The notes beneath the pieces were generated by a model. The model worked only from the letters and a program-made list of their open reading frames with translations. It had not been told where the DNA came from and did no database searches. DNA of 33,561 nt from Actinobacteria bacterium UBA5182 (GTDB lineage Bacteria > Actinomycetota > UBA4738). The DNA lies in NCBI GenBank assembly GCA_002413185.1, contig DHWM01000197.1, forward strand, positions 2,081-35,641, read 5' to 3'. This document shows, piece after piece, positions 4,434 through 27,112 of the stretch (position 1 is its first letter; each line of letters opens with the position of its first letter). Both the position numbers and the translations under genes were made by a program.

Positions 4434-4555
4434 GTGGTGATTGTGGAACGAACCCTGCGCGCGCGGAGCGCACGCCGTCTCGACCAGACGCCATCCCCGG
4501 GCGTACAGTCCGGCCAGCCGACCGCCCGGATCAGCATGCGACCAGGGAGACCGCC

Positions 4556-9063: not shown

Positions 9064-9194
9064 CCGAGACCGGACCGGACTCAGCGGCCCACTGGAAATT
9101 ACCTCTCTGGTATGTCAAGCTGCCGGTAGTCAAGCCGCGCAGGGGGATGCGTCAGGGATCCATCTTCCGTGCTGCGCATCAAGGGGGGGTGGAA

Positions 9195-11804: not shown

Positions 11805-12963
11805 GGAGCCGGGCCCGAAGGCGTTCGTCGCCCGCCGCGTCGATGCAGGTCCAGGCCATGGCGGTCGCGCCGCGGAGGATGGCGTCGTCCGCCGACGGCG
11901 TCCCGCAGTACGCGGCGAACTCCGCCTGGTGGTTGACCGCCACCCCACTCTCGATGCCCACTGTCGGGTGGATCGTCGGGATGGCCAGCGAGATGTTCGC
12001 CATGTCGGTCGAATAGAAGACATCCGCCTCGGCCGGGTGCGGCGTGGTCCCGAGCGCCGAGAGGTTCGCGGCGTACAGGGCCTCCAGGTCCTCGTCACCG
12101 TGGAAGTGCGAATAGGTCTCGCCGTCGTGCGTGATCTCCACGTGGCAGCCGGTGCCAACTGCGCCCGCCTGAAGGCAGTCGACGACCCGGCGCTCCAGTT
12201 CGCGCAGACGATCCAGCGTCCGGGCCCGGACGAAGTAGCTCATCGAGGCACGCTCGGGGATCACGTTCGGAGCGGCGCCGCCATGGGTGACGATGCCATG
12301 GACGCGATCGCCGGGCTCGAGGTGCTGGCGCAGCAGGCCCACGGCGACCTGGGCCACGGTCGCGGCGTCCGCGGCGTTCAGGCCCTGCTGGGGATAGGCC
12401 GCGGCGTGGGCGGCCTTCCCCGTGTACGTGACGACGAGCTCCGAGCACGCGATGGCGGAGCAGGTCACCTCGTCGATCCCATAGGGTCCCGGATGCACCA
12501 GCATCGCCGCGTGCACGCCGTCGAACGCGCCCCGCTCCAGCATGAGGATCTTCCCGCCGCCCCTCTCCTCGGCAGGGGTTCCGAGGACCTTCACGGTGAT
12601 CCGCAGCTCGTCGGCGGCGGCGGCCAGGGCGATGCCCGCCCCGACCGACGCGGCCGCGATGACATTGTGGCCGCACGCGTGCCCAACCTCGGGAAGCGCG
12701 TCGTACTCGGCGCACAGACCGATGACGAGCTCACCGGACCCGGAGGTGGCGACGAGCGCGGTGGGGAGTTCGGCCACGCCCCGATCGACGTCGAACCCGT
12801 GGGCGGAGAGCGCCTCGGCAACCCGGGCGGATGCCAGGTGCTCCTCGAAGGCGAGCTCGGGGTTCTCCTGGATGCCGTGGCTGAGCGCGACGAGCTCCTC
12901 GGCCGCTGCCTCCACCGCCTGCCGCGCCCGTTCCTTCAGCTCGCCCGGATCGATGTCCCTCAC
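11755..12963 (-). CDS. M20/M20D-family amidohydrolase (AbgB-like)
   Basis: This is the tail of ORF 11755..13947 from GTG 12963, which lies behind GAAAGGAGAG. It carries ENPELAFEEH, CAEYDALPEVGHACGHNVIAAASVG and LGTPAEERGGGK. The GTGA overlaps the upstream gene stop, and the 3' end overlaps tag by 50 nt in convergent orientation. Confidence 0.85.
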   Translation of the reverse strand: MRDIDPGELKERARQAVEAAAEELVALSHGIQENPELAFEEHLASARVAEALSAHGFDVDRGVAELPTALVATSGSGELVIGLCAEYDALPEVGHACGHNVIAAASVGAGIALAAAADELRITVKVLGTPAEERGGGKILMLERGAFDGVHAAMLVHPGPYGIDEVTCSAIACSELVVTYTGKAAHAAAYPQQGLNAADAATVAQVAVGLLRQHLEPGDRVHGIVTHGGAAPNVIPERASMSYFVRARTLDRLRELERRVVDCLQAGAVGTGCHVEITHDGETYSHFHGDEDLEALYAANLSALGTTPHPAEADVFYSTDMANISLAIPTIHPTVGIESGVAVNHQAEFAAYCGTPSADDAILRGATAMAWTCIDAAGDERLRARLLSGRAASAAGQAASRP

Positions 12964-13925
12964 GGGTCTCTCCTTTCTCGGTCCAGCTCCTGCAGCACGG
13001 CTCCCAGCCCTTCGATCGAACGAAGGGTGATCGGATCGAGCACGAGCTGCACGCGCGAGATCCCCTCGGCGGCGAACGATCGCAGCTCCCCCGCCAGCTC
13101 TTGGGGTGAGCCGGTCAGCGGTGGGACCTTGGGCTCCCGTCCGCCGCGCGACGGGACCCCGCCCTCTTCGATTTGCACCAGGACGGCCACCGTTCGCTCC
13201 AGCGTGCCCGGGTCGCGACCCTCCGCGGCGCACGCCTGGTCCACCTTGTCCCGAACCGGCCCGATCCCCTCCGGCCGGTTGCCGTACCACGTGTACCAGG
13301 CGTTCCAGGCATCCGCGTGCGCCGCGGCGAGCCGGAGCATCCGCGGTCCCTTGGTGCCGACCATGATGGGTGGACCGCCCGGACGGGAGGGGCTCGGGAG
13401 GAGCACGCAGTCCCTGGCCTCGTGGTAGCGCCCGGCGAAGTCGACCGCGCCCTCCCGGAGGAGCCCCCTGATGATGGCGAAGGCCTCCTCGAACCGGTCC
13501 ACCCGATGATCGAACGGAAAGCCGAACGCCTGGTATTCGGGTTCGTTCCAGCCGGCCCCGAGGCCGAGGATGAGCCGGCCGCCGCTGATCTCGTCGATGG
13601 TCGCGGCCTTCTTCGCCAGCATCGCCGGGTTGTGGAACGAGACGCTCGCCACCAGGGGTCCCAGTTCGACCCGCTCGGTGACCGCGGCCACCGCGGCGAG
13701 GACCGACCACGCCTCCCATGGTCCGCGGGGAGGTTCGCCGGGGTCCCGGTAGAGCAGGTGGTCGCCCACCCACAGGGAATCGAACCCGACCGCCTCCGCC
13801 GCCCGGGCCATGTCCCGCAATTCGGGCCACCTGACCTCGCGCTCCACCTCGGGGAGTTGCACGCCGACGCGAAGCGGCCTGGTCGGCACCGATGGAGGCG
13901 ACATGGGCATCAGCGTATACAACAC
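12960..13925 (-). CDS. LLM-class (luciferase-like) F420-dependent oxidoreductase
   Basis: RVGVQLPEVEREVRWPELRDMARAAEAVGFDSLWVGDHLL...GRLILGLGAGWNEPEYQAFGFPFDHRVDRFEEA is the typical LLM signature. The start is ambiguous: GTG 13925, ATG 13910 or ATG 13904. Confidence 0.85.
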   Translation of the reverse strand: MLYTLMPMSPPSVPTRPLRVGVQLPEVEREVRWPELRDMARAAEAVGFDSLWVGDHLLYRDPGEPPRGPWEAWSVLAAVAAVTERVELGPLVASVSFHNPAMLAKKAATIDEISGGRLILGLGAGWNEPEYQAFGFPFDHRVDRFEEAFAIIRGLLREGAVDFAGRYHEARDCVLLPSPSRPGGPPIMVGTKGPRMLRLAAAHADAWNAWYTWYGNRPEGIGPVRDKVDQACAAEGRDPGTLERTVAVLVQIEEGGVPSRGGREPKVPPLTGSPQELAGELRSFAAEGISRVQLVLDPITLRSIEGLGAVLQELDRERRDP

Positions 13926-13974
13926 GCGGGAGCGCCCTGTGGCTCACGCCTCCGGGCGACTCGGACGGGCGAGA

Positions 13975-14376
13975 TCAGACGGCCTGGCTGAGCTCGAACA
14001 GATGGCCATCAGGGTCGCGGAAGAAGCACCGGATCTCGAACCCGTGGTCGACCGGGGGCGTCAGGAACTCCGCCCCACGCGCTCGGAGAGTTTCGTACGC
14101 CGCGCGGCAATCGGGGACACGGATGGTGAACGAATGGTCCACCCGGTCCGGGTCCGAGGGCGGCGCGAAGGTAACGTTCGGCTTGTCCTCGGTCGGTCCG
14201 CCGCCCTCCACCAGCAGGAACCAGTTCCCCATCAGCCGAAGGACGATCGACGAGCCGTACTCCCGGTACAGCTCCGCGCCCAGGACCTCGACATAGAAGT
14301 ATCGGGCCCGCCCGGTGTCACCCGACACCAGGATGTGCGTGAGCTCCGTTCCCTCGGTGGGGAAGCCGTTCGCCAT
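13975..14376 (-). CDS. VOC (glyoxalase) family protein
   Basis: MANGFPTEGTELTHILVSGD...FFRDPDGHLFELSQ. The ORF track extends it to TTG 14394. Confidence 0.75.
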   Translation of the reverse strand: MANGFPTEGTELTHILVSGDTGRARYFYVEVLGAELYREYGSSIVLRLMGNWFLLVEGGGPTEDKPNVTFAPPSDPDRVDHSFTIRVPDCRAAYETLRARGAEFLTPPVDHGFEIRCFFRDPDGHLFELSQAV

Positions 14377-14431
14377 GATGGTACCGTACCCCAAGCGTCA
14401 AACCGCCCGAGGGTCGCGGACCGAGCAGGCG

Positions 14432-14931: not shown

Positions 14932-15047
14932 CGCATCCCCTCTCGCCGTGCGCCGGCCGGCTGTTGGGAGATGGTAGCGGCTGGAATGCGAGAGACTCGG
15001 GTGTCCGCTCGCTTTCGCGCGGGCGATCGAACAGGCAGGAGGGAGCC

Positions 15048-15731
15048 ATGAGGATCGGCGTACTCGGCACCGGGATGGTCGGACAGACGTTGAGCGGGGC
15101 GCTGGCCCGGCTCGGCCATGAGGTCGTGATCGGCACGCGAGACCCGGAGGCGGCGGTGGCCCGCACGGAGGCGCCTCGCCCGGGGATGTCGTCGTTCTCG
15201 GAATGGCACGCCGCGAACCCGAGGGTGAAGGTGGCCACGTTCGCCGAGGCCGCCGGGCACGGCGAGATCGTCTTCAACGCGACCTCGGGGACGGGCGCGT
15301 TGGATGCGCTCCGAGCCGCCGGGGAGGAGAGGCTGGAAGGCAAGATCCTGGTCGACATCGCCAACCCGCTCGACTTCTCGGCCGGGATGCCGCCTACGCT
15401 GTCCGTGGCCAACACCGACTCGCTGGGGGAGCAGATCCAGCGAGCGTTCCCGGAGGCGAAGGTGGTGAAAACGTTGAACACGGTGACCGCGGCCGTGATG
15501 GTCGAGCCACAGGCTGTCGGCGACGGCGATCACCACCTCTTCGTCAGCGGCGACGATCCTGCTGCCAAGCGTGAGGTCACCCGGTTGCTCCAGGAGTGGT
15601 TCGGCTGGCGGAACGTGATCGACCTCGGCGACATCACGACCTCCCGAGGGACCGAGATGTACCTGGCACTGTGGATCCGCCTGATGCCGGCGACGGGTTC
15701 GCCGATGTTCAACATCAAGGTCGTGTTGTAG
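15048..15731 (+). CDS. NADPH-dependent F420 reductase-like NAD(P)-binding oxidoreductase
   Basis: ATG 15048 lies behind GGAGGGAG. MRIGVLGTGMVGQTLSGALARLGHEVVIGTRDPE is a Rossmann N-terminus, and the length and C-terminus are typical of the NpdG-like family. Confidence 0.8.
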   Translation: MRIGVLGTGMVGQTLSGALARLGHEVVIGTRDPEAAVARTEAPRPGMSSFSEWHAANPRVKVATFAEAAGHGEIVFNATSGTGALDALRAAGEERLEGKILVDIANPLDFSAGMPPTLSVANTDSLGEQIQRAFPEAKVVKTLNTVTAAVMVEPQAVGDGDHHLFVSGDDPAAKREVTRLLQEWFGWRNVIDLGDITTSRGTEMYLALWIRLMPATGSPMFNIKVVL

Positions 15732-17028: not shown

Positions 17029-17934
17029 TCAGGGGTCCACACCCGACATCGTGGCCAGGACCTCGAAGAGCACCGCGAAGTCCTTCCTCTCCCAACCGAG
17101 GGCTCGAGCCGCGGTGAGCAACTGGTTCGCGGTCGCGGTGGTGGGGAGAGGGACGTCCAGCTGGCGTCCCATCTCCAGGGCCACCAGGAGATCCTTCTGC
17201 ATCATGTTCACGTCGAACCAGGCCTCGTCGGGCTGCCCCAGCACGAACGGCCCCCGGTACTTGATCATCGGAGAGGCGATCACGCTGTTCAGCAGGACGT
17301 GGACCGCGGTCTCGCGACTGATACCGCTCCGCTCGGCGAGCAGCACCCCCTCGCTGAAGGCGAGCATCTGCACGGCGAGGCTGAGGTTCGTCGCGATCTT
17401 CATGGCTACCGCCTGCCCGTTGGGCCCGACGTGGGTGACGGTTGGTCCGATGTCTCGCAGGACCGGCAGCACCTGCTCGACGGTCCTCGCGTCACCGCCG
17501 ACCATGATGGAGAGCTTCCCTTCCTCGAGGGTGGCGACGCTGCCCGACACCGGGGCGTCGAGCATGCTCGCCCCGGCGGCGTCCACCTTCGCCGCGAGCG
17601 CCCGGCTCGCCTCCGGGCTGATGGAGCTCATGTCCACGTACACCTTGCCCGGCGAGAGGCCGGCGACCAGCCCATCGGGTCCCTCCGTGACGGCCTGCAG
17701 GGCGGCGGTGTCGGTAACCATGCTGAAAACGACGTCGGCGGACTCGGCCACGGCTCTGGGCGTGTCGGCCCACCCCATCCCGGCGGCGACGAGCCAGTCC
17801 GCCTTGGAGCGGGTGCGATTGTGGCCCGTCACGTCGTGTCCCGCGTCCAGGAGGCGCTTGGCGATTCGGCCGCCCATGACTCCCAAGCCCACGAAACCCA
17901 GATTGGCCACCGCCGCTCCTCTCTTGGCGCTCAT
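17029..17934 (-). CDS. beta-hydroxyacid dehydrogenase (3-hydroxyisobutyrate dehydrogenase / tartronate-semialdehyde reductase family)
   Basis: The 301-aa ORF carries NLGFVGLGVMGGRIAKRLLDAGHDVTGHNRT, DAPVSGS and MKIATNL motifs. ATG 17934 overlaps the livF stop (ATGA). Confidence 0.88.
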   Translation of the reverse strand: MSAKRGAAVANLGFVGLGVMGGRIAKRLLDAGHDVTGHNRTRSKADWLVAAGMGWADTPRAVAESADVVFSMVTDTAALQAVTEGPDGLVAGLSPGKVYVDMSSISPEASRALAAKVDAAGASMLDAPVSGSVATLEEGKLSIMVGGDARTVEQVLPVLRDIGPTVTHVGPNGQAVAMKIATNLSLAVQMLAFSEGVLLAERSGISRETAVHVLLNSVIASPMIKYRGPFVLGQPDEAWFDVNMMQKDLLVALEMGRQLDVPLPTTATANQLLTAARALGWERKDFAVLFEVLATMSGVDP

Positions 17935-18665
17935 CCTCGGTTCGCCGGCGCCGCGCCCAAAAAGAGGCGCGCCACCTCCGGATCCGCCAGCAAGCTCGAT
18001 CCCGTCCCCTCCAGCCGAACCCTTCCCGACTCCATCACCGCCCCGTGATGGGCGATGGCGAGCCCCGATCGGGCGTTCTGCTCGACCAGGAGCACCGTCC
18101 GGCCGCCTTCGTTGATCTCGGTGATGGTGTGGAACACCAGCTGCCGGGCCCTGGGATCGAGGCCGGTCGACGGCTCGTCCATCAACACCAGCACCGGGTC
18201 GAGCATCAACGCCCTCGCGATCTCGACGATCTTCTGCTCTCCACCGGACAGGGATCCCGCTCGCTCGTGGCGACGGTTTGCGACGATGGGGAATCGGTCC
18301 GCGATGTGCTCGATTCGCCTCCGGACCACCGCGCGGTCTCTCAGGACGAATCCACCCATCAACACGTTGTCCCAGACCGACATCGACGGGAACAGGCTTC
18401 GCTCCTGGGGGACGTGGACCACACCGTGGCTCAGGACGGCCTGCGGGCTCAGCCCCCCGATGTCGCGGCCCAGCAGGGTGATCCGGCCCCTTTTCGGTCG
18501 GAGCAGTCCACTCACCGTCTTCAGCACGGTGGATTTCCCCGCCCCGTTCGGCCCGATCAGGCAGGTGACCGCGCCCTCCTCCACGGTGAGGTCGACGCCG
18601 TGGAGCACGTCGCCCCGGCCGTAGCCGGCAACGACGCCCTGCAGACGGAGCAGCGCGGTCCCCAT
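17931..18665 (-). CDS. livF: branched-chain-amino-acid-type ABC transporter ATP-binding protein (LivF-like)
   Basis: The 244-aa tail of ORF 17931..19331 has Walker A GPNGAGKST, signature LSGGEQ and Walker B LVLMDEPS. ATG 18665 shares 1 nt with the livG stop (TGATG). Confidence 0.9.
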   Translation of the reverse strand: MGTALLRLQGVVAGYGRGDVLHGVDLTVEEGAVTCLIGPNGAGKSTVLKTVSGLLRPKRGRITLLGRDIGGLSPQAVLSHGVVHVPQERSLFPSMSVWDNVLMGGFVLRDRAVVRRRIEHIADRFPIVANRRHERAGSLSGGEQKIVEIARALMLDPVLVLMDEPSTGLDPRARQLVFHTITEINEGGRTVLLVEQNARSGLAIAHHGAVMESGRVRLEGTGSSLLADPEVARLFLGAAPANRG

Positions 18666-19396
18666 CAGGTTCCCAGGTAGGCGTCCAGCACGAGGGGGTC
18701 TCGCTGCACCTCGGCCGGCCGCCCCTCCGCCAGCTTCGCGCCGTGGTCGAGCACGATGACCGGGTCGCACAGGCGCATGACGAGGTTCATCTCGTGCTCC
18801 ACTACCAGGAACGTGATCCCCTGGCGATGGAGGTCCCGGATGTGCTGTTCCATCGTCTCCACCATCACGGGATTCACCCCGGCGGTGGGTTCGTCCAGCA
18901 GCACGAGCTTGGGCCGGCCCATGAGGACGGCGGCGAACTCCAGGAGCTTCTGCTGGCCGAAGGAAAGCTCCCGCGCCTTGTTGCCCATGAGGTCCCCGAG
19001 GCGGAAGTCGGCGAGCACCTCCTCTGCCCGCCGTCGGTCGGTCGGAGGGACGTCTCGTCCGAGGAGGGCCCACCACGGCCGGTTCGCGGCGACGGCCAGG
19101 TTTTCCACCAGCGTCAGCTCCCGGAAGACTCGCGGCTGCTGGAACGTTCGGCTGAGGCCGGCCCGGTAGAAGCGGGCGGGGTCGGGCCTCGAGGCGCGGC
19201 GACCGTCGAAGGAGACCGCCCCGGCGTCCGGCCGGAGGTATCCGGTGACCATGTTGAAGACGGTGGTCTTCCCCGAGCCGTTCGGGCCGATGAGCGCGGT
19301 GATGGAGCCGGCCGACACCTCGAACGTGCACCCGTCAACCGCGGTGACGCCACCGAAGCGCTTGGTGAGGGCCCTCACCTCGAGGAGCGCGCTCAC
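18665..19396 (-). CDS. livG: ABC transporter ATP-binding protein (LivG-like)
   Basis: Starting from GTG 19396: VSALLEVRALTKRFGGVTAVDG..., GPNGSGKTT, LSFGQQK, LVLLDEPTAG. A GTGA overlaps the livM stop. Confidence 0.9.
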   Translation of the reverse strand: MSALLEVRALTKRFGGVTAVDGCTFEVSAGSITALIGPNGSGKTTVFNMVTGYLRPDAGAVSFDGRRASRPDPARFYRAGLSRTFQQPRVFRELTLVENLAVAANRPWWALLGRDVPPTDRRRAEEVLADFRLGDLMGNKARELSFGQQKLLEFAAVLMGRPKLVLLDEPTAGVNPVMVETMEQHIRDLHRQGITFLVVEHEMNLVMRLCDPVIVLDHGAKLAEGRPAEVQRDPLVLDAYLGT

Positions 19397-20406
19397 GAGG
19401 CGATCTCCTCTCGGGCCGAACCGACGGGCAGCCGGGGAGTGGTTCGCCCGTCCCGCCGCCGCGCCACCATGTCGGCGATCGAGGGCAGGATCCCTCGCGG
19501 CAGCAGCAGGATGATCGCCAGGAACACCGCCGCGTACGCGATCAGGTACAGCTCGCTCGCCCCGTACCGGTACGCCAGCCACTGTTGGGCCGGAACCAGG
19601 ATGAACGCCCCGAGCACCGGACCCCACACCGTTCCCGCTCCGCCGAGGAACACCGGCAGCAGCGATCCGATCATGACGAGCGGGTCGATGGCGAACTGTG
19701 GATAGACGTAGCCGATGTAGTAGGCCCACACGGCGCCGATCATCGCGGTCATGCCGACGCTCACGGCGAACGTGAAGACCTTCGCCTCCGTGGCCCGCAC
19801 GCCGACGCCTCTTGCCTTGTCCTCGTCGTCCCTGATGGCGAACAGCATCAGCCCGAGGCGATCCCGCCGGACGTGCCACGTGACCAGCGTGGCCAGGGCG
19901 AAGATCGCCAGAAGGGCCAGATAGAACGGCCGCTCGTACAGAGAGAACGTGGGACTCGGCACCGATACGCCCTGCGAGCCGTGGGTGAGGCCGCGCAGGT
20001 TGAACGCAAGCTGCTGCACCACGAACAAGAGCGTCAGCGTGACGATGGCGAAGGTCATGTGGCGGGTTCGCAGCGCGACCCACGCCACGGGCACGCTGGT
20101 GAGCGCGACGGCGATCCCGATCGCGGGCAGCACCAGGAGGGGCAGGAACCCGCGGGAGCCGATCCCGATGTGGCTGAACAGGATGGCTTCGGAATAGGCG
20201 CCGAGCCCGAAGAAGGCCACGTGGCCGAGCGAGATGTATCCGGAGTAGCCGCCCAGGAGGTTCCAGGCCTGTGCCAGCCCCGCGTACATGAGCACGAAGA
20301 ACGCCATGTTCAGCACCCAGTGCTGCGAGAACACGAACGGGAAGGCCACGAGCGCGCACATCACGACCCCCCCGCGGGCCAGGCCGGCAGCCGACAGGCG
20401 ATTCAC
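19393..20406 (-). CDS. livM: ABC transporter permease (LivM-like)
   Basis: Starting from GTG 20406, this is a hydrophobic 337-aa protein with NLLGGYSGYISLGHVAFFGLGAY and IRDDEDKARGVGV motifs. A GTGA overlaps the livH stop. Confidence 0.88.
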   Translation of the reverse strand: MNRLSAAGLARGGVVMCALVAFPFVFSQHWVLNMAFFVLMYAGLAQAWNLLGGYSGYISLGHVAFFGLGAYSEAILFSHIGIGSRGFLPLLVLPAIGIAVALTSVPVAWVALRTRHMTFAIVTLTLLFVVQQLAFNLRGLTHGSQGVSVPSPTFSLYERPFYLALLAIFALATLVTWHVRRDRLGLMLFAIRDDEDKARGVGVRATEAKVFTFAVSVGMTAMIGAVWAYYIGYVYPQFAIDPLVMIGSLLPVFLGGAGTVWGPVLGAFILVPAQQWLAYRYGASELYLIAYAAVFLAIILLLPRGILPSIADMVARRRDGRTTPRLPVGSAREEIAS

Positions 20407-21296
20407 AGCGCCCCCCGCTCCCGGACCCCGAACAGCCCCTGCGGGCGGAACACCAGGATCACGATGAGCACGATGAAGAAGACGAACGACGACCACGACG
20501 GGGAGATCATGACCGCCACGACCGACTCCCCGACCCCGAGAAGGAGGGCGGCGACGACCGCCCCGCCGAGGCTGCCCAGGCCGCCGAGCACGACGATGGA
20601 CAGGAGCCGGGAGATGAGGTCGTAATGGCTCCCCGGGTTGAACGGGTAGATGATCCCGAAGACGGCGCCGGCCGCGGCGGCGGTGGAGATGCCGATGCCG
20701 AAGCCGAGGGCGGATACCCGGTCGGCGTCGACCCCCAGGAGCTTCGCCGACGTCGGATTCTGCACGGTGGCCCGAACGGAGCGGCCGAACCTGGTCCGAG
20801 CGAGCAGCAGCGAGAGCGCGCTCAGGATCACCACGGAGATGACGAAGCCGAAGACTCGCACTTCCGCGACCCGGTAGCCCAGGATGATCCAGGACCTCTG
20901 GGCGTAGCCGGGGATGGTCGAACGCAGGTTGGTGGTGTAGGTGACCGACAGGACGCCCTCGATTGCCAGGGCCGTGGCCCACGTCACCAGAAGGGACATC
21001 TCCTCGCCGCTCTCGGCACGTAGCGCCCGGATGAACACGCGATGGATGCCAACACCGAGCGCGAACATCACCGGAGCGATCAACAGGATCGACAGCAATG
21101 GATCGATCCCCACCGAGCTGAACAGGGTGTAGCTGAGGTAGGCGCCCAGGATCACCATGGCTCCCTGCGCGACGTTGATGACTCGCATGATCCCGAAGAC
21201 GAGGGTCAGGCCGCTCGCCATGAGCGCGTACACCCCGCCGATCAGGATCCCGAGGATGACGGCTTGGACGAGAAGGTGCATCAGGTTCTCGGACAC
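20403..21296 (-). CDS. livH: ABC transporter permease (LivH-like)
   Basis: The 297-aa ORF begins (M)SENLMHLLVQAVILGILIGGVYALMASGLTLVFGIMRVINVAQGA. The start is GTG, preceded by AAGGGGGAG. Confidence 0.9.
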   Translation of the reverse strand: MSENLMHLLVQAVILGILIGGVYALMASGLTLVFGIMRVINVAQGAMVILGAYLSYTLFSSVGIDPLLSILLIAPVMFALGVGIHRVFIRALRAESGEEMSLLVTWATALAIEGVLSVTYTTNLRSTIPGYAQRSWIILGYRVAEVRVFGFVISVVILSALSLLLARTRFGRSVRATVQNPTSAKLLGVDADRVSALGFGIGISTAAAAGAVFGIIYPFNPGSHYDLISRLLSIVVLGGLGSLGGAVVAALLLGVGESVVAVMISPSWSSFVFFIVLIVILVFRPQGLFGVRERGAL

Positions 21297-21335
21297 CTCC
21301 CCCTTATGGGTGGTGCTCGCCAGGGACTTGGCCGG

Positions 21336-22553
21336 CTAGCCCGCCCAGTTGGGCTTCGGGATCGTCGGCGCCGCAAGGGCCACCGATGCCGGGTAGACCG
21401 GCACCAGCTTGCCGCCGATCCACTCCACCAACAGGTCCTGGCCCTGGGGCTCTCCTACTGAGTTCCACGAGAGGTTCCCCTCCACGCTGGCCCACGAGCC
21501 CTGGTGCAGCGCGGCGATGATCTTCCCGTTGTCGAGCGACCCGACCTTCGACACCACCGCCTGGAGGATCTGGCCGCATGCGTAGGCCTCGGCGGACGTC
21601 GAGTCGATCGGGCCGGGCCCGTACGCCGCGTGATACGCGGCCACGAACTCCGCGTTGCCCGGCGACTTCTCGTCCTCGAACCAGTCACCGGCGCCGAAGA
21701 CGCCGTTCACGTTGCTCGCCCCGATCTTGTCGGGGAAGTTCACCGGGTCGTTCGATCCGTTGGAGAGGAACAGGAACTTCGGGCTGAACTTTTCGCTGAT
21801 CATGGCCTTCACCAGCCCGAAGGCGTCCGCGACCTGAGTTCCACCCACCACGATGTCGGGGCTCGCGTGGGCCAGCTTGGTGACGATGGTGGTGAACTCG
21901 GCCGTCTCGGCCGGATAGATCTGCTTGAAGACCGTCGTGATGCCCGCCGCCTCGAACTTCTGGCGGACCGTCTCGGCGATGGGCGCGGCGAAGGGGTCGT
22001 CGAGCTCGGGATACCCGGCCGTTTTGGGCCGCTGGTCGGCGGGGAGCGACAGGATGTAGTTGGCGAACACCGTGCCGCTGTCGACGACGGGGGCCGGCTG
22101 GACGAAGAAGATGTTGTGCAGGTTCTCATCGAAGATGGCCGGGCCGCCGCCCGCCGGTTCGATGAACGCGTACCCGTACCGGTTGGCCACCTTGGCGGCC
22201 GGAGCGCTGAGCAGAGTGGAAAAGGGCCCGAACACGATGTCGACCTTGTCCTTGGTGATCAGGTTCTGGTAGTTGGTGACGACCTGGTCGGGGCTGCTCG
22301 TGTCGTCGACGATCTTGAGCTGGACCTGTCGGCCCATGATGCCCCCGTGCGCGTCGACGGTCTTGGCCCAGAGCTCGTAGCCCTTCTTGGCGGCCGCGCT
22401 GGGATCGGAGAAGTCGCCGCTGGCCGAGAGCGAGATCCCGATGACGATCGGCTTGGTGTTGGTGGAGTTGGTTCCTTTCGAGCTGCACGCCGCCCCGACC
22501 AGCGCGGCCAGCGCCACGAACGTCGCCACCCCGCCCCAGCGTCCTCGTGACAT
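21336..22553 (-). CDS. Liv/amide-type (PBP1) ABC substrate-binding lipoprotein
   Basis: ATG 22553 lies behind GAGAGGAGG. MSRGRWGGVATFVALAALVGAACSS carries a lipobox, followed by IVIGISLSASGDFSDPSAAAKKGYELW..., typical of the family. Confidence 0.88.
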   Translation of the reverse strand: MSRGRWGGVATFVALAALVGAACSSKGTNSTNTKPIVIGISLSASGDFSDPSAAAKKGYELWAKTVDAHGGIMGRQVQLKIVDDTSSPDQVVTNYQNLITKDKVDIVFGPFSTLLSAPAAKVANRYGYAFIEPAGGGPAIFDENLHNIFFVQPAPVVDSGTVFANYILSLPADQRPKTAGYPELDDPFAAPIAETVRQKFEAAGITTVFKQIYPAETAEFTTIVTKLAHASPDIVVGGTQVADAFGLVKAMISEKFSPKFLFLSNGSNDPVNFPDKIGASNVNGVFGAGDWFEDEKSPGNAEFVAAYHAAYGPGPIDSTSAEAYACGQILQAVVSKVGSLDNGKIIAALHQGSWASVEGNLSWNSVGEPQGQDLLVEWIGGKLVPVYPASVALAAPTIPKPNWAG

Positions 22554-22597
22554 CACGCCTCCTCTCGCCCCCGGCCATAACCGATCCGGCCCAGGCC

Positions 22598-22611
22598 TGC
22601 AAACCTTTGCA
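22598..22611. promoter_or_regulatory. LacI-family operator candidate O2 (TGCAAACCTTTGCA)
   Basis: The site has perfect 6+6 arms, extendable to CCTGCAAA/TTTGCAGG (22596-22613). It lies between the lacI-like stop (22650) and the binding-protein start (22553). Confidence 0.65.
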
Positions 22612-22649
22612 GGACCGCGCCGCATGCTAGGCAGCAGGATCGTTCGAAG

Positions 22650-23684
22650 TCAAACCGGCGGGCCGGACGGCGGAAGCCGTGGGGGCCTGGTCGAGCCCCG
22701 GACCACCAGCTCGGGCGCGATCAGGATGGTCTCGGGATGCTGATCCGGGTTCTCGATCCGGCTCAGGAGCAGTTGGGCGGCACGGCGGCCGATCTCGTAT
22801 TCGGGGATCCTCACCGTCGTCAGTGGCGGCCTGAATCTGTCCACGAACGGCATGTCGTTGAACCCGACCACGGAGAGGTCCTCGGGGCATCGACGGCCGC
22901 TCTCCTCTGCCGCCTCGATCGTCCCCAGCGCGATCAGATCGTTCGCTGCCACGACGGCGGTGAGGTCGGGGTTCCGGGAGAGGAGCGTGCGGGCGGCCTC
23001 GCGTCCGGCGATCTCGGCGAACGCCTCCGACCGGACCATGGGTCCGGCCGGTAGCCCCAGCAGGTTCGATGCCTCGGCGAACCCCGCCGCGCGCCGGGCC
23101 CCCGTGGAGGTGTCGGCGGGCCCCCCGACGTGGCCGATCCGGCGGTGTCCTTGCTGGTGGAGGTGCTCGACGGCCAGCATCATCCCGGCGTGGTCGTCTG
23201 GGATGACGGCCGCCACCCCGCCCCGGTCGATCGTTCGGTTCACCAACACCAGAGGGGCCTGTCGCCCCCGCAGCTCCTCCACCAGCGGATCCCGGCGGCG
23301 GGCCATGGCCAGGAGCAGCCCGTCCACTTGGCGCTCGAGCATCGCGGCGACGTGGCGGCGCTCCTTGCCGTCGTCGTTGTCCGTATTGCCCAGGAACAGG
23401 GTGTATCCGCTCTCGGCGAGGCAGTCTTCCGCCCCGCGCACGATGGGCGGGAAGAACGGGTTGGTGATGTCCGGAACGAGCATCCCGATGATGAACGATC
23501 GGTTCAGCTTCAGCCCTCGCGCCATCCTGTTGACGCGGTAGCCGAGGTCGGACGCGGCCTGCCGGACCCGCTCCACCGTCTCCGCCCGGACCATGGTCGA
23601 ACGGCTGTCATCGAGCGCCCTGGAGGCCGTCGCCACGTGGACACCCGCGGCCTCGGCGACGTCCTTCAGGCGCGGCGTCCTCAC
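22650..23684 (-). CDS. LacI-family transcriptional regulator
   Basis: GTG 23684 lies behind GGGGAGA. (M)RTPRLKDVAEAAGVHVATASRALDDS... is the HTH, followed by a periplasmic-binding-protein-like effector domain (GYTLFLGNTDND, VVAANDLIALG, VVGFND). Confidence 0.9.
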   Translation of the reverse strand: MRTPRLKDVAEAAGVHVATASRALDDSRSTMVRAETVERVRQAASDLGYRVNRMARGLKLNRSFIIGMLVPDITNPFFPPIVRGAEDCLAESGYTLFLGNTDNDDGKERRHVAAMLERQVDGLLLAMARRRDPLVEELRGRQAPLVLVNRTIDRGGVAAVIPDDHAGMMLAVEHLHQQGHRRIGHVGGPADTSTGARRAAGFAEASNLLGLPAGPMVRSEAFAEIAGREAARTLLSRNPDLTAVVAANDLIALGTIEAAEESGRRCPEDLSVVGFNDMPFVDRFRPPLTTVRIPEYEIGRRAAQLLLSRIENPDQHPETILIAPELVVRGSTRPPRLPPSGPPV

Positions 23685-23725
23685 GGCAGGAGTCTCCCCG
23701 CGGACGCCACATCGCCCGTCATCGT

Positions 23726-23739
23726 TGCAAGCGATTGCA
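23726..23739. promoter_or_regulatory. LacI-family operator candidate O1 (TGCAAGCGATTGCA)
   Basis: 12 of 14 positions are self-complementary and the centre is the canonical CG. It lies 42 nt upstream of the lacI-like GTG and downstream of the E1-beta stop (23772). Confidence 0.65.
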
Positions 23740-23771
23740 CCGTCGCTACCGCCCCGTCTCCCCGCAGCCCG

Positions 23772-24746
23772 CTATCCCAGGTTCGCCCGGATGGTCTCGA
23801 CGATGCGGGCGACCGATGGCACGGCCGCGTCCTCCAAGGCGTCGGCCGCCGGCACCGGGACGTGTGGGGTCGTGATCCGGATCGGCGCGGCATCCAGATC
23901 GTCGAAGCACTCCTCCGCGACGATCGAGACCAACTCGGCACCCCATCCGCACAGCCGGGGGTTCTCCTCGACCGTCACCAGGCGGCTGGTCCTGCGTACC
24001 GAGTCGAGTATCGTCGCGGTATCGAGCGGGACCAGCGACCGGACATCGATCACCTCGGCCGAGACGCCCTCCTCGGCCAGGCGCCCCGCAGCCTCCACCG
24101 CGCGCGGGACCATGGGTCCCAGGGCGGCGATCGTGAGGTCCTCGCCCACCCGAAGGACCGCCGCCCTCCCCAGCTCCTCGACGTGCTCGCCGTCGGGGAC
24201 CTCGCCCTTGACCGCGTACAGCGACTTGGCCTCGAACACGATGACCGGATCGGGGTCGCGAACGGCGGCGGCGATGAGTCCCTTGACGTCGGCGGGCGTG
24301 GTCGGTGCCACCACCTTCAGGCCGGGAACGGCCATCGCCCAGTTCTCCAGGGCCTGGGAGTGCTGAGCGCCGAACCGCGAACCCGCCCCGTTCGCCGTCC
24401 GGATGACCAGCGGCATCGCCACCTGCCCGTTCGTCATATAGCGGGTCTTGGCGATCTGGTTCGCCACGATGTCCCAGCACGTGGCCAGGAAGTCCGAGAA
24501 CATGAGCTCGACGATGGGCCGCAGGCCGGTCATCGCCGCGCCCATGGCGGCGCCGACGATGGCCTCCTCGGAGATGGGGGTGTCGCGAACCCGATCCGGC
24601 CCGAACCGCTCGAGCAGGCCGACCGTGGCCTTGAACACGCCTCCCGCGGCGGCGACGTCCTCGCCGATGAAGTACACGGTCGGATCGCGCTCCATCTCCT
24701 GCGCGATGCCGGCGGCGACCGCGTCGCGATAGGTCAGTTCCGCCAC
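23772..24746 (-). CDS. alpha-ketoacid (pyruvate/acetoin-type) dehydrogenase E1 component beta subunit
   Basis: Starting from GTG 24746, with GGGAG 7 nt upstream: VAELTYRDAVAAGIAQEMERDPTVYFIGEDVAAAGGVFKAT...DTPISEEAIVGAAMGAAMTGLRPIVELMF. The 5' end overlaps the E1-alpha 3' end by 13 nt. Confidence 0.9.
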   Translation of the reverse strand: MAELTYRDAVAAGIAQEMERDPTVYFIGEDVAAAGGVFKATVGLLERFGPDRVRDTPISEEAIVGAAMGAAMTGLRPIVELMFSDFLATCWDIVANQIAKTRYMTNGQVAMPLVIRTANGAGSRFGAQHSQALENWAMAVPGLKVVAPTTPADVKGLIAAAVRDPDPVIVFEAKSLYAVKGEVPDGEHVEELGRAAVLRVGEDLTIAALGPMVPRAVEAAGRLAEEGVSAEVIDVRSLVPLDTATILDSVRRTSRLVTVEENPRLCGWGAELVSIVAEECFDDLDAAPIRITTPHVPVPAADALEDAAVPSVARIVETIRANLG

Positions 24747-25756
24747 GTCGAGCTCCCGTCGCTCCAGACGTCGGTCTCCACCAGATCGACCGGCGGCGGC
24801 GGACTGGCTTTCGCCGCCTCCGTGGCTTCGTCCACCTTCCGGAGGGCCTCGACGTCGATGTCCTGGAGCGTCGCGTCGGCGACCCCAAGCTCGGAGAGCC
24901 TGGCGCGGTACAGGGGAACCGGATCGCGCCCCATCCACGACTGGATCTCCTCGGCCGGCCGGTACTTGCCCGGATCGGCGCGCGAATGTCCACCGTGCCG
25001 GTACGTGACCGCCTCGATGAGCGACGGGCCCTGTCCGGAGCGGGCTCGGTCGATGGTCCGGACGGCCACCTCGTAGACGGCGTCGGGGTCGTTGCCGTCC
25101 ACGATGATCGGCTCCAACCCGTATGCGGACGCGCGGTCGGCGGCAGGGTTCGGCACCGCCGTCACTGACCGGATCGGCGTGTACTCCATGTAGAGGTTGT
25201 TCTCGCACACGAACACGACGGGGAGCCGCCATACCGCTCCCAAGTTCAAGGCCTCGTGGAAGGCGCCGATGTTCGTGGCCCCGTCCCCGAAGAAGCACAC
25301 GGCCACCTGCCCCGACCCCCGGGCCTGCGCCGACCAGGCCGCTCCCACGGCGATCGGGAGGTGGGCGCCGACGATGGCGTAGGACCCCATCACGCCGTGC
25401 TCGACGCTGGTGAGGTGCATCGACCCGCCCTTGCCGGCCATCAGGCCGCCCTCTCGCCCGAGGAGCTCGGCCATGACCGGCGTCATCGGAACCCCTCGGG
25501 CCAGGGTGTGAGCGTGGCCCCGGTAGGTGCAGAACGTGTAGTCGTCGGCACGCATGGCAGTGCCGAACCCGGCCGCGATGGCCTCCATGCCGAGCGAGAG
25601 GTGGCTTGTCCCCTTGACCAGGTTCTGCAGGAAGAGGTCGTACGCGCGCTTCTCGAAGGTCCGGATCTCGACGATCGACCGGTACATCGCCAAGCGTGTT
25701 TCCATGTCGATATCGCCGGCCTCGGACCGTCTCTCTCGCGTGCTCGTGTCGCCCAC
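24734..25756 (-). CDS. TPP-dependent dehydrogenase E1 component alpha subunit
   Basis: The start is GTG 25756 behind GGAGGGA. It carries YRGHAHTLARG, GKGGSMHL and the TPP motif GDGATNIGAFHEALNLGAVWRLPVVFVCENN. Confidence 0.9.
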   Translation of the reverse strand: MGDTSTRERRSEAGDIDMETRLAMYRSIVEIRTFEKRAYDLFLQNLVKGTSHLSLGMEAIAAGFGTAMRADDYTFCTYRGHAHTLARGVPMTPVMAELLGREGGLMAGKGGSMHLTSVEHGVMGSYAIVGAHLPIAVGAAWSAQARGSGQVAVCFFGDGATNIGAFHEALNLGAVWRLPVVFVCENNLYMEYTPIRSVTAVPNPAADRASAYGLEPIIVDGNDPDAVYEVAVRTIDRARSGQGPSLIEAVTYRHGGHSRADPGKYRPAEEIQSWMGRDPVPLYRARLSELGVADATLQDIDVEALRKVDEATEAAKASPPPPVDLVETDVWSDGSSTWRN

Positions 25757-25792
25757 TGTTCCCTCCGCTCGTGGATCGGCCGCCCGATCCGG

Positions 25793-27043
25793 TCAGTAGC
25801 GGTTCGCCACCATCAGCTCCTCCGCCGGAAAGAGCGTGAGCAGCTGGGGCCCGTCCGCCGTGACCACGATCTCCTCTTCGATTCGCGCCGCGGAGTGGCC
25901 GTCGTCGGCCGGGCAGTACGTTTCCAGCGCGAACACCATGCCCTCCTGCAGCTCGACGGGGTGCTGCAGCGAGTTCAGGCGGCTGAAGATGGGCCGCTCG
26001 TGCAGGGCCAGCCCGAGGCCGTGGCCGAACTGCAGCCCGAACGCCTCCATCTCGTCGGCGAACCCGAACTCCTGCGCCTCCGGCCACACCCGGACGATCT
26101 CGTCGGTGCTCACCCCGGGCTTCACCAGCGCGATGGCGGCGTCCATCCACTCCCGGGCCCGCGCGTACGCATCCCGCTGGCTCTGTGTGGCCCGCCCGAC
26201 ACTGAACGTCCGGTAGTAGCACGTCCGGTAGCCGTTGTACGAGTGGATGATGTCGAAGAACGCCTGGTCGCCGGGGCGGATCATCCGGTCCGAGAAGATG
26301 TGGGGGTGCGGGCTGCACCGTTCGCCGGAGATCGCGTTCACGCCCTCCACGTCGTCGGAGCCCATCTCGTACAGGCGCTTGTTCACCAGCGCGACGATGT
26401 CGTTCTCGCGGATGCCCGGCTTCAGGGCCTCGTAGATCATGTGGTAGACGCCGTCCACCATGGAGGCGGCCATGGACAGCAGCGTGATCTCGTCGTTCGA
26501 CTTGATCATGCGGGCGTCCAGCATGGTCTGCTGCGCGTCGCGAACCTCCAGGCCGAGCGCTTGGAGCTCGAACACCATGGGCAGCTCCGCGATGTCCAGG
26601 CCGAGCGGCTCGTGCGCCACGCCGTTCTCCTCGAGGACCGCCTTGACCTCGCGCGCCGTGCTGGCGAAGAAGCCGGCCTCGGGCGCGACGGAGCCGCGAA
26701 GACCGGTCATCCCGGCTCGCGAGTTCTCCGGCGCCAGCCACGGCGAGTGCAGGCGGTGGGCCTTCGCCGCCGAGCCGAAGTCCCACAGCACGGGCGGGCC
26801 GGTCCGCGTCAGCAAGGCGAACCGCATGAGTTTGTCGCGGGCCCACTCGCCGATGTTCGTGCTGGTCAGGTACCGGATGTTGTTCATGTCGAAGCAGAGC
26901 ACGGCGCCCAAATCCGACTGCTCGAGGGCGTGACGGGCCCGGCCCAGCCGGTAGGCGCGCAGCCGGTCGAAGTCGACCCGAGCCTCGAAGTCGACGTTCA
27001 TGCCGCCGGGGGCGGGGATGGAGGTCTGGGCGAACTCGTTCAC
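25793..27043 (-). CDS. M24-family hydrolase (creatinase/prolidase/DddP-like fold), non-canonical metal site
   Basis: A creatinase_N-like N-terminus (FDRLRAYRLGRARHALEQSDLGAVLCFDMNNIRYLTS) precedes the pita-bread domain (GDQAFFDIIHSYNGYRTCYYRTF, GHGLGLALHERP, FALETY, RIEEEIVVT). GTG 27043 has GGAG 8 nt upstream. ATG 27001 and the ORF-track start at 27172 are alternatives. Confidence 0.85.
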   Translation of the reverse strand: MNEFAQTSIPAPGGMNVDFEARVDFDRLRAYRLGRARHALEQSDLGAVLCFDMNNIRYLTSTNIGEWARDKLMRFALLTRTGPPVLWDFGSAAKAHRLHSPWLAPENSRAGMTGLRGSVAPEAGFFASTAREVKAVLEENGVAHEPLGLDIAELPMVFELQALGLEVRDAQQTMLDARMIKSNDEITLLSMAASMVDGVYHMIYEALKPGIRENDIVALVNKRLYEMGSDDVEGVNAISGERCSPHPHIFSDRMIRPGDQAFFDIIHSYNGYRTCYYRTFSVGRATQSQRDAYARAREWMDAAIALVKPGVSTDEIVRVWPEAQEFGFADEMEAFGLQFGHGLGLALHERPIFSRLNSLQHPVELQEGMVFALETYCPADDGHSAARIEEEIVVTADGPQLLTLFPAEELMVANRY

Positions 27044-27077
27044 GTTCGGCGCTCCGGGTTCGGCGAGGTGATCTGCC

Positions 27078-27112
27078 TGCAAACGTTCGCACCGGGGGCG
27101 AGCACGTGTCAA
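27078..27112 (-). promoter_or_regulatory. LacI-family operator candidate O3 (TGCAAACGTTCGCA, 27078-27091) with a TTGACA -35 box (27107-27112)
   Basis: On the minus strand the sequence reads TTGACA, 17-18 nt, then CGAACGT, overlapping the operator TGCGAACGTTTGCA. This sits 35 nt upstream of GTG 27043. Confidence 0.55.

Follow-up and report, generated by a model that had tools for sequence, protein, structure and literature searches.

LacI/GalR regulons with operators of the PurR/CytR/CcpA type (TGnAAnCGnTTnCA) join a regulator with a LacI-type helix-turn-helix (HTH_LacI) and a type I periplasmic-binding-protein fold to 14-bp palindromes with a central CG, which overlap or follow a promoter and include a site before the regulator's own gene. 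We describe a block of ten genes with these features on the minus strand of a stretch of 33,561 bases (G+C about 69%; hereafter the window) from Actinobacteria bacterium UBA5182, contig DHWM01000197.1. Judged from its sequence, the regulatory part of the block is ordinary in its logic: it follows the textbook LacI/GalR scheme and its operator is PurR/CytR-like. It differs from its described counterparts in its targets, which match no described sugar or nucleotide regulon: an M24-family metalloenzyme, both subunits of a thiamine pyrophosphate (TPP)-dependent E1, an amino-acid/amide-type ATP-binding cassette (ABC) importer and a beta-hydroxyacid dehydrogenase. We suggest, with a probability of roughly 60%, that a LacI-family repressor controls the block as a regulon for uptake and catabolism, inducible by its substrate, with an M24/E1/dehydrogenase pathway for which a nitrogen-containing acid is the leading class of substrate. 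The controlled pathway is widespread and strongly conserved; this catabolic cassette, which has an unusual M24 enzyme at its centre, is apparently uncharacterised.

The operator sites, promoter elements and enzyme families of the block were read from the DNA and from domain matches, and are given here in the direction of transcription.

27107-27112, minus strand: TTGACA, the -35-like hexamer of the presumed promoter of the M24 operon (direct sequence reading)
27078-27091, no strand assigned: putative operator O1, TGCGAACGTTTGCA on the coding strand, ending 35 nt before the M24 GTG
25793-27043, minus strand: M24-family metalloenzyme of a DddP-like clade, 416 amino acids, GTG start (PF00557, 1e-38)
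24734-25756, minus strand: E1 alpha, subunit of a TPP-dependent dehydrogenase of pyruvate/acetoin type (PF00676, 1e-72)
23772-24746, minus strand: E1 beta, GTG start (Transket_pyr and Transketolase_C)
23726-23739, no strand assigned: putative operator O2, TGCAATCGCTTGCA on the coding strand, between E1 beta and the LacI gene, ending 41 nt before the LacI GTG
22650-23684, minus strand: LacI/GalR-family regulator, 344 amino acids, GTG start (LacI helix-turn-helix and Peripla_BP_1/3)
22624-22653, minus strand: sigma-70-like promoter TTGACT-18-TAGCAT of the transporter genes (promoter scan); its -35 hexamer overlaps the LacI stop codon
22598-22611, no strand assigned: putative operator O3, TGCAAAGGTTTGCA on the coding strand, 12 nt downstream of the -10 hexamer and ending 44 nt before the binding-protein ATG
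21336-22553, minus strand: HAAT (Liv/Urt-type) substrate-binding protein, ATG start (Peripla_BP_6, 2e-47)
20403-21296, minus strand: LivH/UrtB-like ABC permease (BPD_transp_2 and NCBIfam matches)
19393-20406, minus strand: LivM/UrtC-like ABC permease (BPD_transp_2 and NCBIfam matches)
18665-19396, minus strand: LivG/UrtD-like ABC ATPase (ABC_tran with BCA_ABC_TP_C, and NCBIfam matches)
17931-18665, minus strand: LivF/UrtE-like ABC ATPase (ABC_tran and NCBIfam matches)
17029-17934, minus strand: beta-hydroxyacid dehydrogenase of the HIBADH family, the final gene of the block (NAD_binding_2 and NAD_binding_11)

An earlier, sequence-only reading of this DNA had described ten same-strand genes of these kinds, all of which Pfam and NCBIfam show to be real, and three near-identical palindromes found only upstream of the M24, LacI and binding-protein genes. 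The palindromes lie at exactly the positions it gave, all of them intergenic, and are the sole three matches to TGCAAACGTTTGCA at up to three mismatches in the window, where 0.31 would be expected; none of 100 shuffles reached three matches. Each differs from TGCAAACGTTTGCA at one or two positions, and the pattern TGCAANCNNTNGCA picks out exactly O1-O3, with 0 expected over 100 shuffles. All three have the form of LacI/GalR operators, 14-16-bp palindromes with a central CG that lie at or just downstream of promoters, except that the centre of O3 is CC/GG and not CG. The claim that O1 overlaps the TTGACA hexamer had to be given up: the hexamer lies 15 nt upstream of O1, and O1 therefore covers the expected -10 region. 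Adjacent gene ends within the block either overlap by 1-13 nt or are separated by 36-96 nt.

Comparison of gene neighbourhoods across genomes, which the sequence-only reading had named as a check, supports the interpretation of the block as a regulon. We collected 80 loci (1.5 Mb) anchored on M24 orthologues in species-representative genomes, scoring the operator motif at up to two mismatches, and a second set of 80 loci (0.59 Mb) anchored on E1 alpha in metagenomes; individual loci are cited below by number. Locus L090, from an independent metagenome-assembled genome (GCA_016853205.1) whose M24 enzyme is 85% identical to that of the window, has the identical ten-gene order between unrelated flanks, and it has operators at the three matching positions, with TGCGAACGTTTGCA upstream of M24, CGCAATCGCTTGCA upstream of the regulator gene and TGCAAAGGTTTGCA upstream of the binding-protein gene. 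Its promoter elements match as well, with TTGACA 15 nt upstream of the M24 operator and TTGACT-18-TAGCAT before the equivalent of O3. L089 and L176 have a permuted order (dehydrogenase, M24, E1 alpha, E1 beta, LacI, transporter), and in L089 the operators precede the dehydrogenase gene and the binding-protein gene; the TTGACA-operator arrangement of O1 recurs there with a distance of 14 nt, and the O3 equivalent has TTGACA-17-TAGAAT and TGCAAACGATTGCA. The 13-nt overlap of the E1 beta start with the E1 alpha stop is shared by the window, L089 and L090.

The motif is strongly enriched across the whole collection. The M24-anchored loci hold 53 sites, against 1-4 for each of seven independent composition-matched palindromes (a 13- to 50-fold enrichment), and the E1-anchored loci hold 31, again against 1-4 for the controls. 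For 43 of the 53 sites, a called gene begins no more than 350 bp downstream, and the genes below the sites encode M24 (11), HIBADH-like dehydrogenases (11), LacI (6), transporters of several families, TauE, an FrsA-like alpha/beta-hydrolase and a molybdenum-cofactor (MoCo) enzyme. The consensus from related loci is TGCAA(A/T)CG(A/T)TTGCA. Moreover, the presence of the motif goes with that of the regulator: a LacI orthologue, defined by at least 45% identity (range 45-62%), is present in 24 of the 80 loci, and the motif occurs in 18 of these 24 and in only 13 of the 56 without one (Fisher p = 3e-5). The regulator-operator pair is shared by Actinomycetota, Chloroflexota/Dormibacterota, Alphaproteobacteria and Gammaproteobacteria. 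At the Rfam gathering thresholds, no riboswitch was found in the window or in five diverse loci.

The regulator itself has the LacI/GalR architecture (PF00356, 1.5e-11; PF13377, 1.5e-40; PF00532, 1.5e-34) and is presumably autoregulated. Its best NCBIfam models are RbsR (222 bits against a cut-off of 382), CytR, PurR and UriR, none of which reaches its cut-off. PurR and CytR, which have non-sugar roles, belong to the same family, and relatives of the E1 are found in sugar-type clusters, so that the combination of a sugar-type LacI protein with an amino-acid/amide importer and an E1 is less odd than the sequence-only reading had held it to be.

The core of the cassette, M24-E1 alpha-E1 beta with a HIBADH-type gene and often a GabD-type aldehyde dehydrogenase and a lipoyl E2, occurs in at least 577 species-representative genomes and at least 592 metagenome stretches, and is 65-88% identical across Actinomycetota, Chloroflexota, Dormibacterota, Acidobacteriota and Proteobacteria. 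The best 120 M24 relatives, from Actinomycetota, Chloroflexota and Dormibacterota, are 75-88% identical to the window's enzyme. Wherever a contig runs past M24, the three genes form a fixed triad, with E1 subunits 65-78% identical; M24 stands directly upstream of E1 alpha in 37 of 52 E1-anchored loci with room for it, and in many loci from five phyla a HIBADH-type gene stands directly upstream of M24. A lipoyl E2 and/or a GabD-type aldehyde dehydrogenase follows E1 beta in 33 of 41 loci. Because E2 or lipoyl proteins accompany E1 in most orthologous clusters, the E1 is normally part of an acyl-transferring complex. The block, which had been called a self-contained regulon, is self-contained only in part, as the window lacks both the E2 and the aldehyde dehydrogenase. 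The same two genes are absent from its nearest relatives, L089, L090, L173 and L176.

Carriers are found among soil and marine bacteria, and those in culture include Plantactinospora soyae, Kibdelosporangium philippinense ATCC 49844, Wenjunlia tyrosinilytica CGMCC 4.7201, Acidothermaceae bacterium B102 and Phaeobacter gallaeciensis DSM 26640. In Roseobacters, Streptomyces and Paenarthrobacter the cassette is plasmid-borne. The Roseobacter plasmids carry a short-chain dehydrogenase/reductase (SDR), M24, E1 alpha, E1 beta, a double-lipoyl protein, GabD, an E2 catalytic domain and LpdA; in L082 (Phaeobacter gallaeciensis pGal_E78, 31460-42428), L085, L087 and L088 the full set lies beside a divergent CUT2 sugar ABC transporter, two SDRs, a HIBADH-like gene and ThuA. 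E1 alpha of the Roseobacter plasmids is only about 41% identical to that of the window, and M24 64%. The Plantactinospora set comprises an alpha/beta-hydrolase, a dehydrogenase, M24, E1 alpha, E1 beta, an aldehyde dehydrogenase and a 76-amino-acid lipoyl protein. In Plantactinospora soyae a 46-codon open reading frame of a repetitive GYAA(D/V)(Q/E/D) type lies between E1 alpha and E1 beta (L081:12254-12394); it had no other tblastn match and may be a calling artefact. Two further E1 clusters were seen. On a plasmid of Rhodococcus sp. USK13 (L171, about 297773-306650), E1 alpha and beta are 62% identical to those of the window, with an aldehyde dehydrogenase upstream and no M24, and the cluster also encodes a Rieske oxygenase subunit, an arylsulfatase, a formylglycine-generating enzyme and an SsuBC-like ABC transporter. 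On Agrobacterium tumefaciens pAtCFBP7129b (L172, 139397-153598), a 47%-identical E1 alpha, E1 beta, E2, LpdA and LipA lie in an operon with a CUT1 sugar ABC transporter, PfkB and a SorC-type regulator. In this sugar-type cluster, too, an acetoin-type complex is put to a use that is not characterised.

The M24 enzyme is the most unusual member of the cassette. Its best NCBIfam match is DddP, an enzyme that releases dimethyl sulfide from dimethylsulfoniopropionate (DMSP), at 112 bits against a cut-off of 600, and DddP structures 4s01 and 4b28 head both the PDB and the Foldseek matches, covering the N-terminal and pita-bread domains at about 23-24% identity in the Foldseek alignment. DddP is also the nearest fold to the AlphaFold2 model, which has a moderate predicted local distance difference test score of 67 and gave no pointer to the substrate. 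In the active-site alignment the enzyme keeps D264, H341, H348-E349, E374 and E389, and is therefore probably a metalloenzyme. Cys275 (codon 26219-26221, minus strand; motif FFDII.S.NGYRTCYYRT) replaces the second metal-binding Asp, and all 91 orthologous motif instances in the collected loci have a Cys here. No characterised M24 enzyme among the matches is known to have a Cys at this ligand position. The orthologues span the full 416 amino acids, which supports the GTG start at 27043.

Two described activities were considered for this protein and rejected. We take the metal-binding and catalytic residues of DddP to be D295, D297, D307, H371, D377 (catalytic), E406 and E421; apart from its score of 112 bits, the window's enzyme lacks D297, has C275 in place of D307, and has H348 of the canonical His-Glu pair in place of D377. 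Its genomic context is also entirely unlike that of the DMSP lyase. An Xaa-Pro dipeptidase or aminopeptidase P (M24B) is no better a description, with PepQ at 82 bits against 630, PRK10879 at 40 against 465, and Cys in place of the second Asp of the five canonical metal ligands (Asp, Asp, His, Glu, Glu).

The E1 is a genuine heterodimeric TPP-dependent enzyme, with an E1_dh domain in alpha and Transket_pyr and Transketolase_C domains in beta. E1 beta scores 373 bits with PRK09212, above the subfamily cut-off of 321, and E1 alpha scores 324 bits with PDH_E1_alph_y, under the cut-off of 394. Against human pyruvate dehydrogenase (PDH) E1 alpha, the alpha subunit reaches 204 bits, compared with 136 against the branched-chain 2-oxoacid dehydrogenase (BCKDH). 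The earlier label of a 2-oxoacid E1 was therefore right as to E1 and too generic as to type, which is pyruvate/acetoin.

The dehydrogenase belongs to the beta-hydroxyacid dehydrogenase family, as shown by NAD_binding_2, NAD_binding_11, an APVSG motif and the invariant catalytic K179. It reaches no NCBIfam equivalog of the family (tartronate semialdehyde reductase, 228 bits against 341; HIBADH, 167 against 292). Its top PDB matches are 3pef and 3pdu (2e-54) and 3doj; the titles returned were generic, and we take the first two to be Geobacter gamma-hydroxybutyrate dehydrogenase/succinic semialdehyde reductases and the third to be Arabidopsis GLYR1. By these matches the window's enzyme resembles a glyoxylate/succinic-semialdehyde reductase. 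Two non-orthologous HIBADH types, 33-36% identical, fill this one slot of the cassette (window 17029-17934 as opposed to L089:9021-10004, L081:8980-9987 and L078:13232-14167). The window's type is the final gene of its operon; the commoner type stands directly upstream of M24 and has a conserved C-terminal PE..V.DGL tail. This second type is kept from Actinomycetota to Gammaproteobacteria, and both types have the catalytic Lys. Open reading frames of about 700 amino acids that seemed to be HIBADH-M24 fusions proved to be alternative-frame artefacts of crude gene calls.

The importer has the full complement of the HAAT family: Peripla_BP_6, a pair of BPD_transp_2 permeases, and two ATPases of which one has a BCA_ABC_TP_C tail. 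No equivalog cut-off (LivJ, UrtA etc.) that would point to a substrate was reached. The binding protein scores 82 bits with the LivJ-type model, against 477, and its nearest structures, the amino-acid/gamma-aminobutyrate binders 4n0q and 3ip5, match at only 1e-20; the solved structures that match the Liv-type and the SsuA-like binding proteins of the loci are too distant to indicate a ligand. The HAAT importer of the window is also that of most Actinomycetota, Chloroflexota and Acidobacteriota, and other lineages have SsuA/NMT1-like ABC, TRAP or CUT2 sugar ABC importers or TonB-dependent receptors; a family-5-like binding protein among them is unconfirmed. From this variety, the core would either handle a shared intermediate or act on a compound of mixed chemical character.

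We infer binding, induction, step order and chemistry as follows. The repressor, encoded in the middle of the block, would bind the three 14-bp palindromes. At O1 it would block the -10 region of the promoter of M24-E1 alpha-E1 beta; at O2, before its own gene, binding would imply autoregulation or a roadblock; and at O3, just downstream of the TTGACT-18-TAGCAT promoter, it would govern the transporter and dehydrogenase genes. An imported compound, or an intermediate of the pathway, would bind the periplasmic-binding-protein-like domain of the repressor, cause its release and turn on all ten genes. The HAAT-type importer would then take in a small polar organic acid, from which M24 would cut a carbon-heteroatom bond, most probably C-N (amide, amidine or ureido), with C-S as the alternative. 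The product would be a pyruvate- or acetoin-like carbonyl compound, which E1 alpha/beta could split into an acetyl unit and either an acidic aldehyde or CO2. The acetyl unit would pass to a lipoyl E2, in the case of the window one encoded elsewhere in the genome, and the beta-hydroxyacid dehydrogenase would convert the acidic aldehyde to its hydroxy-acid or back, a step for which most other genomes would use a GabD-type enzyme in the oxidative form.

Several observations weigh against this model. No recognisable -10 hexamer accompanies the TTGACA upstream of O1 (GAACGT stands at 18-nt spacing), and a generic promoter scan made no call at either O1 or O2. Neither a lipoyl domain nor an E2 was found by tblastn in the window, which also has no aldehyde dehydrogenase; the proposed acetyl transfer therefore depends on genes outside the window, where an E2 for this E1 may be encoded. 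The Asp-to-Cys change at the M24 metal site is unprecedented, and the chemistry may differ from that of any known M24 enzyme. The order of the enzymatic steps is drawn only from enzyme-family chemistry and gene adjacency. Finally, the importer family varies by lineage, and therefore the imported compound may differ as well, with the core handling a shared intermediate.

As to the substrate, we consider a small nitrogen-containing acid from ureide, amidine or heterocycle breakdown to be the leading class and a C2/C3 organosulfonate a close second. To our knowledge, nearly all characterised M24 enzymes cut C-N bonds, and a nitrogen theme runs through the related loci: TRZ/ATZ-type aminohydrolases lie in the operon in nine of them, Amidohydro_2 decarboxylase-like genes in about six, an enzyme of the flavin-dependent amine-oxidase/CrtI family in at least ten, and a molybdenum enzyme of the xanthine-oxidase family lies in the regulon in several; amidase and RidA genes are also seen. 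In L175 (13264-14975) and L128 (7984-9317), PfkB and Indigoidine_A genes (the latter of the pseudouridine-5'-phosphate-glycosidase family; the pair is psuK/psuG-like) follow E1 beta on the same strand. The kinase is a weak ribokinase-type match, and the Indigoidine_A gene matches no NCBIfam model at 1e-8. These neighbours hint at a pseudouridine or C-nucleoside link in one lineage; seen in only two related loci, the link can serve as a lead but not as a general rule. Pantothenate, carnitine, S-methylmethionine, hydroxyectoine, guanidinobutyrate, allantoin-derived ureides and Amadori compounds were each considered and set aside; none explains all of the core genes, and no specific marker gene was seen for any of them.

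The rival that survives best is that the cassette mineralises a C2/C3 organosulfonate, such as 2,3-dihydroxypropane-1-sulfonate, sulfolactate, cysteate or a taurine-type compound. M24 would be a C-S lyase that frees sulfite and pyruvate by beta-elimination, and/or the E1 would carry out a TPP-dependent desulfonation like that of Xsc; HIBADH- and GabD-type enzymes would interconvert the sulfo-alcohol, -aldehyde and -acid, acetyl-CoA would come from E1/E2, and sulfite or a sulfonate would leave the cell through TauE. Indeed, TauE/SafE exporters occur in six proteobacterial loci, among them L026:15061-16559, L037:12255-13007, L078:12313-13062, L048 (about 8658-9398) and L071:8690-9442, and an operator lies upstream of TauE in L037, L048 and L078, with the intergenic region in L037 and L078 shared with a dehydrogenase gene. 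TauE in L026 and L071 has no assigned operator site, and the exporter is present in only 6 of the 80 loci, all of them proteobacterial. Binding proteins resembling the SsuA family lie in the operon with SsuBC-type ABC components in L177, L081, L084 and L067, at a sub-threshold 46-125 bits against 163.5, but the commonest importer, including that of the window, is of the amino-acid/amide type. Among characterised enzymes M24 is closest to DddP, a C-S lyase; at the position of the catalytic Asp377 of DddP, however, M24 has a hydrolase-type His-Glu pair. A cysteine-desulfurase/sulfinase-like gene in the L078 operon, the arylsulfatase and formylglycine-generating enzyme that adjoin the 62%-identical E1 of Rhodococcus, and the presence of sulfolactaldehyde reductase and dehydrogenase in the HIBADH and GabD families (6sm7 and 8c54 are among the matches) fit the idea, but the window has no sulfite-handling gene, the luciferase-like monooxygenase of the Streptomyces cluster is not SsuD-like (30 bits), and known sulfolactate pathways need no dedicated pyruvate dehydrogenase. 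On this evidence we regard an organosulfonate substrate as possible but rather unlikely.

Doubtful to a greater degree is a sugar-derived substrate, such as an Amadori- or opine-type sugar-amine, a deoxy-sugar acid or a nucleoside derivative. An alpha-hydroxyketone made by a dehydrogenase would be split by the acetoin-type E1/E2 into acetyl-CoA and an acidic aldose fragment for HIBADH or GabD, and M24 would take off the amino-acid or amide part. The LacI family of the regulator, whose nearest models are RbsR, CytR, PurR and UriR, speaks for such a substrate, but the importer of the window is not of the sugar type. Roseobacter versions of the cassette adjoin the CUT2 sugar ABC transporter, two SDRs and ThuA, and the Agrobacterium E1 relative lies in its sugar ABC/PfkB/SorC cluster with E2, LpdA and LipA; the window and most loci, however, have no glycosidase, sugar kinase or isomerase. 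Several loci have an aldehyde dehydrogenase between E1 beta and E2, as expected for the aldehyde co-product of an acetoin-type cleavage. The PfkB and Indigoidine_A genes after E1 beta in L175 and L128 also point this way, but the psuK/psuG link is limited to those two related loci and the kinase match is weak.

Public annotations would suggest instead that the block serves the use of peptides or branched-chain amino acids, since they name an Xaa-Pro dipeptidase for M24, a Liv importer of Leu/Ile/Val, a branched-chain E1 and a HIBADH of valine catabolism, and the family-level Pfam assignments fit these names. None of the equivalog cut-offs is reached, however (PepQ 82 of 630 bits, HIBADH 167 of 292, LivJ-type 82 of 477); the E1 is nearer to PDH (204 bits) than to BCKDH (136), and M24 lacks one of the five canonical metal ligands, with Cys there in all orthologues. 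The partner genes of a valine or branched-chain operon are absent from the window and do not recur in the loci: in those examined, the core has beside it neither an acyl-CoA dehydrogenase nor an enoyl-CoA hydratase, a hydroxyisobutyryl-CoA hydrolase or a methylmalonate-semialdehyde dehydrogenase. The aldehyde dehydrogenase is of the GabD type, control is of the LacI type, and other lineages have TRAP, sugar-type or SsuA-like importers. We therefore hold branched-chain use to be very improbable. Least credible of all is that the palindromes are chance matches or sites of another factor, and the ten genes two or three unrelated adjacent operons: the CC/GG centre of O3 and the silence of the promoter scan at O1 and O2 would allow it, but three intergenic matches against 0.31 expected, the matching sites and identical gene order in L090, and the strong independent enrichment at orthologous loci, tied to the LacI orthologue, leave it almost no room.

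A bolder reading can be advanced only tentatively: that the Cys-bearing, DddP-like M24 enzyme and its dedicated acetoin/pyruvate-type E1(/E2) are an undescribed, widespread two-enzyme core that cleaves an abundant environmental solute. Its most attractive specific version would be a C2/C3 organosulfonate route in soil Actinomycetota/Chloroflexota and marine Proteobacteria, with M24 as a metal-dependent sulfo-lyase and/or E1 in TPP-dependent desulfonation; an equally novel version would be a ring-opening pathway for a pyrimidine- or ureide-type compound. An M24 enzyme with Cys at a metal-ligand position would add to what is known of pita-bread-fold chemistry. Should the substrate be an organosulfonate or a nucleobase-derived compound, the pathway would supply a missing part of sulfur or nitrogen cycling in abundant, poorly cultured soil phyla, and the conserved operator offers a direct experimental handle on that substrate.

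The flanks of the block are unrelated to it, and encode a beta-propeller protein, an F420-type luciferase-like oxidoreductase, VOC proteins, a GYD protein and a GH5 glycosidase. Near the block are an F420-dependent luciferase-like oxidoreductase (12960-13943, minus strand), a VOC/glyoxalase-fold protein (13975-14394, minus strand) and an F420_oxidored-domain protein (14964-15731, plus strand). The operator motif is not found near these genes, which are therefore probably unrelated to the regulon; the first of them is a monooxygenase of the F420 type. Elsewhere in the window, an ATP-dependent DNA ligase (2901-4589, minus strand) and a pyridoxal-phosphate-dependent decarboxylase (4556-5947, plus strand) form a divergent pair; their longest open reading frames overlap by about 34 nt, and one of the start codons therefore probably lies further in.

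The sequence-only reading could map this gene set onto no characterised pathway, and a full-text search, with most subscription journals outside its coverage, likewise found no published description of it. Conservation across at least five phyla suggests a common environmental compound with a breakdown route that is not described in the literature covered by this search. The catabolic part belongs to none of the acetoin, ectoine and gcl-glxR systems, although it has something in common with each. With the acetoin dehydrogenase (acoABCL) it shares a catabolic, inducible E1 of pyruvate/acetoin type, to which most orthologous clusters add a lipoyl E2, an aldehyde dehydrogenase that could accept the aldehyde co-product and, sometimes, LpdA. 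Some loci have an alpha/beta-hydrolase and a stand-alone lipoyl protein in place of the classical E2, which may resemble the hydrolase-fold AcoC proteins. It differs in that the E1 is coupled to M24 and a HIBADH-type dehydrogenase, that there is no acoR or acoX, and that the window has no E2; the GabD-type partner points to an acidic aldehyde rather than acetaldehyde. Ectoine catabolism (doeA/eutD) likewise teams an M24 enzyme, which acts there on a C-N bond of a small polar solute and opens it, with a GabD-family dehydrogenase, a high-affinity importer and a dedicated regulator. However, the match of the window's M24 to DoeA is weak (E = 4e-9), and the cassette has a TPP E1 and a HIBADH-type enzyme instead of a deacetylase and transaminase, and a LacI-type rather than a MocR/GntR-type regulator. 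The allantoin/glyoxylate module of E. coli (gcl, glxR), which includes amidohydrolases and a cupin, also pairs a TPP enzyme with a HIBADH-family reductase, and tartronate semialdehyde reductase is the best NCBIfam model for the dehydrogenase of the window. Clusters in other lineages add TRZ/ATZ-type amidohydrolases, bicupins and a xanthine-oxidase-family molybdenum enzyme, but models for allantoinase, allantoicase and ureidoglycolate enzymes have no match. In place of the glyoxylate carboligase of that module, the cassette has a two-subunit E1 that is normally accompanied by a lipoyl E2.

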